IMG/VR virus record: IMGVR_UViG_2563366937_000007
Origin: a virus
Taxonomy: Duplodnaviria; Heunggongvirae; Uroviricota; Caudoviricetes
Strand: one strand, 5' to 3'
DNA length: 52,243 nt
Shown here one piece after another: positions 2,657 through 2,797 of the stretch (positions are counted from its first letter, which is position 1; every line of letters starts with the position of its first letter). A model generated the notes under the pieces. It was not told the DNA's origin and made no database searches. It saw only the letters and a program-made list of their open reading frames with translations. Position numbers and translations under genes: made by a program.

Positions 2657-2797
2657 CTAATGGCCGCTAATCGTCATCTCTATAACTGTTCTTAAATCAT
2701 ACAGGCTATTCTGTTTTTCGTTCATTTCACTCTGGCGCTGATAAAATTTAACATTGCAACAAAACTGGACAATAGCCAACTGTGGCACGTTCCTGAT
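2657..2797 (-). pseudogene. degenerate 3'-terminal remnant of a tail fibre assembly (tfa) gene
   Basis: Translates to ...YQRQSEMNEKQNSLYDLRTVIEMTISGH*, parallel to the intact Tfa C-terminus ...YRRQREMKEELNDLDDLRSIREMTISSQ*; the DNA GCTAATCGTCATCTCT is shared with 4416-4435; an upstream in-frame stop truncates it. Confidence 0.5.

Follow-up and report, generated by a model that had tools for sequence, protein, structure and literature searches.

Escherichia coli K-12 carries the tail fibre assembly (tfa) gene fragments tfaD, tfaX and tfaS; invertible tail fibre segments are known as the G segment of Mu, the C segment of P1, the P segment of e14 and the pin regions of Rac and Qin, and the "exchangeable effector loci" of lambdoid prophages are accessory-gene hotspots beside the tail fibre genes. 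At the Z/fun hotspot of P2, tail fibre and tfa genes are swapped together with cargo such as the cytolethal distending toxin, CDT (bioRxiv 10.1101/2024.10.15.618418). The stretch of DNA analysed here, the window, is the 52,243-nucleotide IMG/VR virus record IMGVR_UViG_2563366937_000007, which contains a complete Rac-like lambdoid prophage. Its attR-proximal end holds an intact tfa gene (4416-4988, minus strand) and a second, short tfa-derived sequence, R1 (2657-2779, minus strand; about 40 codons plus stop), located upstream of the cargo gene ORF A (open reading frame A; 2095-2538, minus strand; 147 aa). On the evidence of similarity, decay and position, R1 is very probably the non-functional 3'-terminal stub of a DUF4376-type tfa gene that was formerly full length and lay directly upstream of ORF A. 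The closest counterparts are N-terminally truncated tfa pseudogenes of enterobacterial prophages, annotated "missing N-terminus" in RefSeq by the Prokaryotic Genome Annotation Pipeline (PGAP), as in A30 and CB209; like these, R1 is a short, co-oriented, non-functional 3' fragment at the fibre/att end of a prophage. It differs from them in being of the DUF4376 type, unannotated, unusually decayed (37% GC), and fused to a terminator-bearing segment, S (2774-3152, plus strand). The locus also resembles the hotspots at which phages carry accessory cargo (morons), as it has low-GC, terminator-bounded cargo (ORF A and ORF B) of variable presence between the last fibre gene and att; R1 itself, in contrast, is not cargo but a scar from the replacement of a module, and no function is annotated for the cargo at this locus.

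The relationship of R1 to tfa is evident in both nucleotide and protein alignments. As a direct repeat on the same strand, positions 2658-2745 match 4417-4504 without gaps at 67 of 88 nucleotides (76%), with a BLAST E-value of 5e-12 within the window; in 2000 dinucleotide shuffles, the best diagonal averaged 35.9 matches (standard deviation 1.8) and reached 44 at most. An identical 16-nt core, GCTAATCGTCATCTCT, at 2666-2681 and 4425-4440 is the longest exact match between R1 and the resident tfa; the initial annotation had correctly recognized a shared core of this kind, but its placement of the functional copy at 4416-4435 was slightly off. The minus-strand translation of 2779-2657, LAIVQFCCNVKFYQRQSEMNEKQNSLYDLRTVIEMTISGH*, aligns without gaps over 41 codons with residues 151-190 and the stop of the window Tfa (49% identity, E=4e-7); when the Tfa proteins of two relatives are included, identities range from 46 to 53%, and the stop codons coincide. 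These alignments confirm the earlier proposal that a second, degenerate tfa 3' end lies upstream of ORF A in the same orientation as the functional one, both being on the minus strand, and the similarity, over 88 nt and 41 codons, extends well beyond the 16-bp core. Among 5,426 complete E. coli genomes (28 Gb), a 90-nt R1 query found matches in 67 genomes at 75-79% identity, all of them 3' ends of genes annotated as "DUF4376 domain-containing protein"; DUF4376 proteins have been described as tail fibre chaperones (PMC10579305). The arrangement at 1850-5000 was found in none of these complete genomes, and an exact-match scan of one-genome-per-species contigs with the 22-mer that spans the joint between R1 and S (2768-2789) returned no matches.

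The firm extent of R1 is 2657-2745, with a probable degenerate extension to approximately 2773-2779; the similarity of the extension (2746-2773) is not significant by itself, and to the right of 2774 the homology is with a different conserved segment, S. The 43-aa ORF at 2657-2788 has no Pfam or PHROG match, which is expected since PF14301 covers residues 71-175 of the intact Tfa and R1 aligns to residues 151-190, an overlap of residues 151-175 at most. No other tfa- or stf-derived remnants were found in 1900-4415, and an Rfam scan of 1700-4500 yielded nothing credible.

R1 is without the approximately 150 N-terminal codons of tfa, and its low GC content compares with 52% in the corresponding part of intact tfa alleles. 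Its mismatches against intact alleles are spread over all codon positions (15, 8 and 17 in the first, second and third), whereas mismatches between intact alleles are biased toward the third position (e.g., 3, 2 and 14). R1 differs at 20 of the 84 columns that are invariant in five intact alleles, and 17 of these differences fall in codon positions 1 and 2; changes from GC to AT at the invariant columns outnumber the reverse by 11 to 3. The substitution pattern indicates relaxed constraint and AT-biased decay. In the source assembly of the window (GCA_000398885.1, Escherichia sp.; contig KB976076.1, 100% identical), R1 has no gene call, and annotators should leave its 43-codon ORF uncalled.

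The origin of R1 can be traced in comparator prophages at ttcA. In A30 and nine further loci that carry ORF A allele P0002, the order is stf (side tail fibre gene), full tfa (188-189 aa), ORF A and uspF. The A30-type sequence matches the window at 91% through ORF A and the adjoining spacer; this match ends at 2661, the stop codon of R1, and only ~73-77% identity is retained within tfa. Since these loci have a full tfa at the place of R1, R1 is the positional homologue of a full tfa and belongs with ORF A. A different prophage, with a baseplate-J-family gene, occupies the same ttcA site in L001 and L006, and L003 is a plasmid locus; in all three, the att arm is followed by a 131-bp segment (X), S and tfa, without ORF A or R1, and ORF B is found in L001 and L006 but not in L003. 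S normally sits just downstream of a tfa stop, in other phages that of a functional stf-tfa pair. The window is thus a hybrid: a joint at ~2774-2797 separates a fibre module that includes S from the end of an old tfa together with ORF A. R1 occurs only with ORF A allele P0001, and all P0001 contigs with enough flanking sequence carry ORF A, R1 and S at 98-100% identity (2540-3155); they differ past 3152, where the ORF B island precedes tfa in window-type contigs, S of L009 is followed immediately by another full tfa, and in L013-L016 a further tfa stub (~180 nt, interrupted by a stop codon) precedes a 346-aa fibre gene, the latter two types lacking ORF B. In all, five architectures were seen at this prophage end among relatives. 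The ~180-nt stub of L013-L016, which are metagenomic relatives (L013, 765-944), is independent of R1 and replaces the whole stf2-tfa pair.

Two further candidates for tfa relics were considered at these loci. A30-type loci have an extra 47 bp between ORF A and the full tfa that forms a hairpin (region 6560-6640 of L002, A30), and they also have an 11-14-nt string, GGGCTAATTGACGC, that resembles the stop region of R1, GGGCTAATGGCCGC; it could be a shorter relic of the R1 type but is too short to count as evidence. Segment X of L001 and L003 was rejected as an older tfa stub; when it was aligned with R1, the stub of L005 (described below) and two tfa ends, between 157 and 601 of 1000 shuffles scored as well.

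The initial annotation had interpreted R1 as a recombination scar from cargo exchange, and the positional homology of R1 with A30-type tfa, together with its decay, supports a non-functional scar that is linked to cargo at the prophage end. ORF A, near attR in a Rac-like prophage, would once have had a full-length tfa immediately upstream; an illegitimate joint at ~2774-2797, within this resident tfa, would then have fused the last ~40 tfa codons to the terminator-bearing left end of S. The new module, stf2-tfa-S, would thereby have come to lie on top of the old stub, whose downstream cargo was preserved. The other crossover may have taken place in the att arm common to both partners, in the conserved stf N-terminus, or in both, as two phages or prophages recombined, with the prophage-encoded RecE/RecT (46806-50259) or host systems as possible agents. 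R1, no longer under selection, would have decayed with an AT bias, and the arrival of the ORF B island, between S and the working tfa, would be a later and separate event. On this account R1 dates and orders the mosaic history of the locus (ORF A with the old tfa, followed by the S-bearing fibre module, followed by the ORF B island) and could serve as a marker for reconstructing cargo build-up between the tail fibre genes and attR; taken alone, it is of little importance.

A comparable joint exists in a second cargo context. In L005 (5145-8258), from mouse E. coli strains, a lambdoid prophage likewise occupies the ttcA site; its ORF B adjoins the CDT genes cdtCBA, and a tfa stub of ~117 nt with a bidirectional-looking terminator lies between ORF B and cdtC. 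This stub, whose alignment to R1 was better than those of 1000 out of 1000 shuffles, ends at a terminator hairpin (CCGCGGCACGTTCC...) that is homologous to the hairpin at the left end of S in L001 and L003 and to its copy in the window (2781-2825); in L005 and the window, the joint between stub and hairpin is at an equal distance from the tfa stop, 117 nt. It is likely, if not proven, that both descend from a single old truncation joint between tfa and the hairpin, which later received new neighbours on both sides.

Truncated tfa ends beside cargo are also found at other sites. A30 has a 96-bp fragment that PGAP labels "tail fiber assembly protein, missing N-terminus"; CB209, at the ompW site, has two annotated tfa pseudogenes and an unannotated 91-codon DUF4376 stub alternating with cargo; and in 52F4 a cargo gene, a 23-codon stub, two cargo genes and a full tfa follow each other in the same geometry as in the window. 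Mosaic scars of this type are common, and R1 is an ordinary one. Since the same joint of truncated tfa and hairpin, 117 nt from the stop, occurs in two cargo contexts, truncated tfa 3' ends might be regular by-products of accretion, and could be read as its stratigraphic markers: new stf-tfa modules would be stacked upstream of the last 20-90 codons of an old tfa and its cargo, with the conserved tfa terminus and terminator hairpins acting as preferred crossovers; this generalization is speculative and on balance rather unlikely. If it were true, cargo genes would accumulate layer by layer at prophage ends. Among the ompW-site prophages, L028, L029 and L030 contain unannotated DUF4376 tfa stubs of 23, 20 and 91 codons, respectively, beside cargo that includes ORF6N, glycine-zipper 2TM plus DUF5384, and S-adenosylmethionine methyltransferase genes; one pair brackets two cargo genes, and L030 has three truncated tfa remnants in series.

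Several observations weigh against the recombination-scar interpretation, or at least against its details. The divergence between R1 and A30-type tfa (~27-32%) exceeds that of the adjacent spacer (~9%), which requires the assumption of one or more additional replacements at the boundary of the tfa stop. Searches of phage records and complete E. coli genomes returned no full-length tfa with more than ~80% identity to R1; without a close parental allele, "decay" is not fully separable from "descent from a distant allele". R1 hardly varies between the few lineages in which it occurs, and variation data therefore cannot exclude selection on it. Positions 2774-2780 can be assigned to either partner, which blurs the exact breakpoint. 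Finally, recombination between phages and deletion within a tandem lysogen give the same product and are indistinguishable with these data. For the latter route, two prophages would have resided in tandem at ttcA, and a large deletion would have left only the last ~0.7 kb of the older one, the tfa stub and ORF A, beside attR. The newer module as seen in L001 and L003 ends with S, X and the att arm, and the window has the stub and ORF A exactly in the place of X; this replacement fits a deletion from X into the resident tfa, and both phage types share the att arm. Yet neither a hybrid att site nor any other gene of a second prophage remains, and the recurrence of the truncated-tfa/hairpin joint in the cdt prophage with other neighbours suggests that the joint is older. 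The tandem-lysogen route is therefore considered improbable.

It is less probable still that R1 has been retained for a function, either as a portable homology arm, by which the conserved tfa 3' terminus would let cargo cassettes recombine in behind any DUF4376 tfa, or as a promoter or 5' leader of ORF A. Two cargo genes are indeed accompanied, on one and the same side, by a 3' fragment of tfa (ORF A in the window, ORF B in L005), the mosaic boundary between window-type and A30-type sequences at 2661-2667 abuts the conserved 16-mer, and prophage RecE/RecT can use short homologies. However, 16 nt is the longest exact match that R1 could offer to the resident tfa, within an overall identity of 76%; its decay appears unconstrained and AT-biased; no promoter-like site is present on the minus strand of 2539-2800; and in A30-type loci a full tfa and a hairpin precede ORF A, which works from that position.

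The two tfa ends enclose ORF B (3593-4342, plus strand) as direct repeats 1759 bp apart, and could in principle be the boundaries of a mobile ORF B cassette, as target duplications or recombination sites. The initial annotation had likewise described the ORF B island as bracketed by the tfa ends, and in this respect it does not hold. When mapped against relatives without the island, the boundaries are at 3153 and ~4397, off the repeats at 2658-2745 and 4417-4504, and the island (plus strand, GC content 30-40%, with a terminator at 4346-4375) replaces a spacer of ~45 bp between S and the tfa stop. The island is absent in L003, L009 and L013 and present in L001, L006 and L005. The presence of R1 without ORF B (L009, L013-L016) implies that the joint that formed R1 predates the ORF B island and arose independently of it; conversely, L001 and L006 have ORF B and only one tfa, and lack both R1 and ORF A. 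The bracketing is thus geometric and not causal, and the cassette explanation, already contradicted by the displaced island ends and by the separate occurrence of R1 and ORF B, is very unlikely. A relic of a Pin/Gin/Cin-type invertible tail fibre segment with an alternative tfa, for which the window offers a second tfa-derived sequence near the stf-tfa pair at a Rac-like prophage end, where K-12 Rac has pinR beside tfaR, is the least credible origin and is likewise contradicted: R1 is a 40-codon stub only, and it points the same way as the functional tfa, unlike the alternative sets of invertible segments, which are inverted; it is not accompanied by an alternative stf C-terminus; no inverted repeats of at least 20 nt that could be crossover sites occur in 1900-10300; and the invertase search that the initial annotation had called for, a tblastn of K-12 PinR against the whole window, found nothing better than E 4.9, in agreement with its statement that this is not an invertible fibre segment.

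The cargo around R1 may be more interesting than the scar itself, in particular ORF B as a ZYG1-family gene with cdt as its neighbour in relatives, and ORF A as a chaperone-like ORFan. Deviant GC content (30-43% in cargo vs. 50-57% in the fibre genes), a terminator of its own and presence/absence polymorphism, the characteristics of an accessory-gene hotspot, are all found at this prophage end. A consensus promoter scan of the sequence preceding ORF A and ORF B revealed no convincing site, and searches of Pfam, NCBIfam, PHROGs and PADLOC assigned neither protein to a family; a search with Protein Data Bank sequence profiles was also negative for ORF B. The ORF B protein is homologous to ZYG1 of Dictyostelium, and its predicted fold is Cyt/Evf-like. 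A 30-nt repeat at 2123-2152 and 3337-3366 was considered as a possible remnant of ORF A in front of ORF B and rejected, as tblastn and blastn were not significant and the match is attributed to chance. ORF A represents a rare but real family, with nine representatives among 1.8e9 proteins and homologues down to 27% identity; it forms one 90% cluster of 14 members with a conserved alignment (A2). Its AF2 model has a predicted local distance difference test score (pLDDT) of 80, and the modelled fold matches YbjN, AmyR and SycE with template modelling (TM) scores of ~0.5; the predicted fold thus resembles those of YbjN/AmyR and of class I type III secretion chaperones.

Segment S is a conserved non-coding block, 93-100% identical in L001, L003, L009 and L013. 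Its left end is the decayed copy of a terminator hairpin at 2781-2825, and its right end (3080-3152) consists of a long hairpin and a T-run with a folding energy of -24.9 kcal/mol (z -2.7). The conservation of S holds across four architectures, and a promoter-like TTGTCA-17-TATTAT (3047-3075) is followed by a 65-nt hairpin and a U-run; judged by these sequence features, 3047-3152 possibly encodes a prophage small RNA, with a predicted transcript of ~70 nt. A 30-codon ORF within S (2940-3032) is broken in L013 by a 1-nt insertion.

On the host side, ompN (window 1-90) has lost its original 5' end, with unrelated residues at the start of the ORF; in the source contig it abuts an insertion sequence with a DDE_Tnp_1/DUF772 transposase (L007, 8596-9576). 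uspF lies between ompN and a duplicated 5' end of the host gene ttcA (1850-1932, plus strand), which lies on the host side of attR and matches ttcA at 100% in genomes without a prophage at this site. The Rac-type att arm beside attR (1933-2088) is common to all comparator prophages at the site; the match to K-12 Rac, A30, L001, L005 and L006 holds until 2087/2088 and is followed by divergence. The intact tfa encodes a DUF4376 tail fibre assembly protein or chaperone of 190 aa (Pfam PF14301, E 1e-15; PHROG 1141, E 5e-84), and its partner stf2 (4985-6490, minus strand) a side tail fibre protein of 501 aa (PF08400 phage_tail_N, E 7.5e-50). Further prophage genes include an integrase (51008-52243), recE/recT, terminase, tape measure and J genes, and two stf genes with a phage_tail_N domain. 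A gene for a TrkH-family potassium transporter lies within the prophage (32761-34236, minus strand), and K-12 Rac likewise carries trkG. The other fibre gene, stf1 (7833-10235; 800 aa), contains a long array of 21-nt-periodic repeats at 9199-9817 (minus strand) with a higher-order duplication of 189 nt, which encodes a shaft rich in Ala, Ser, Glu, Thr and Lys.
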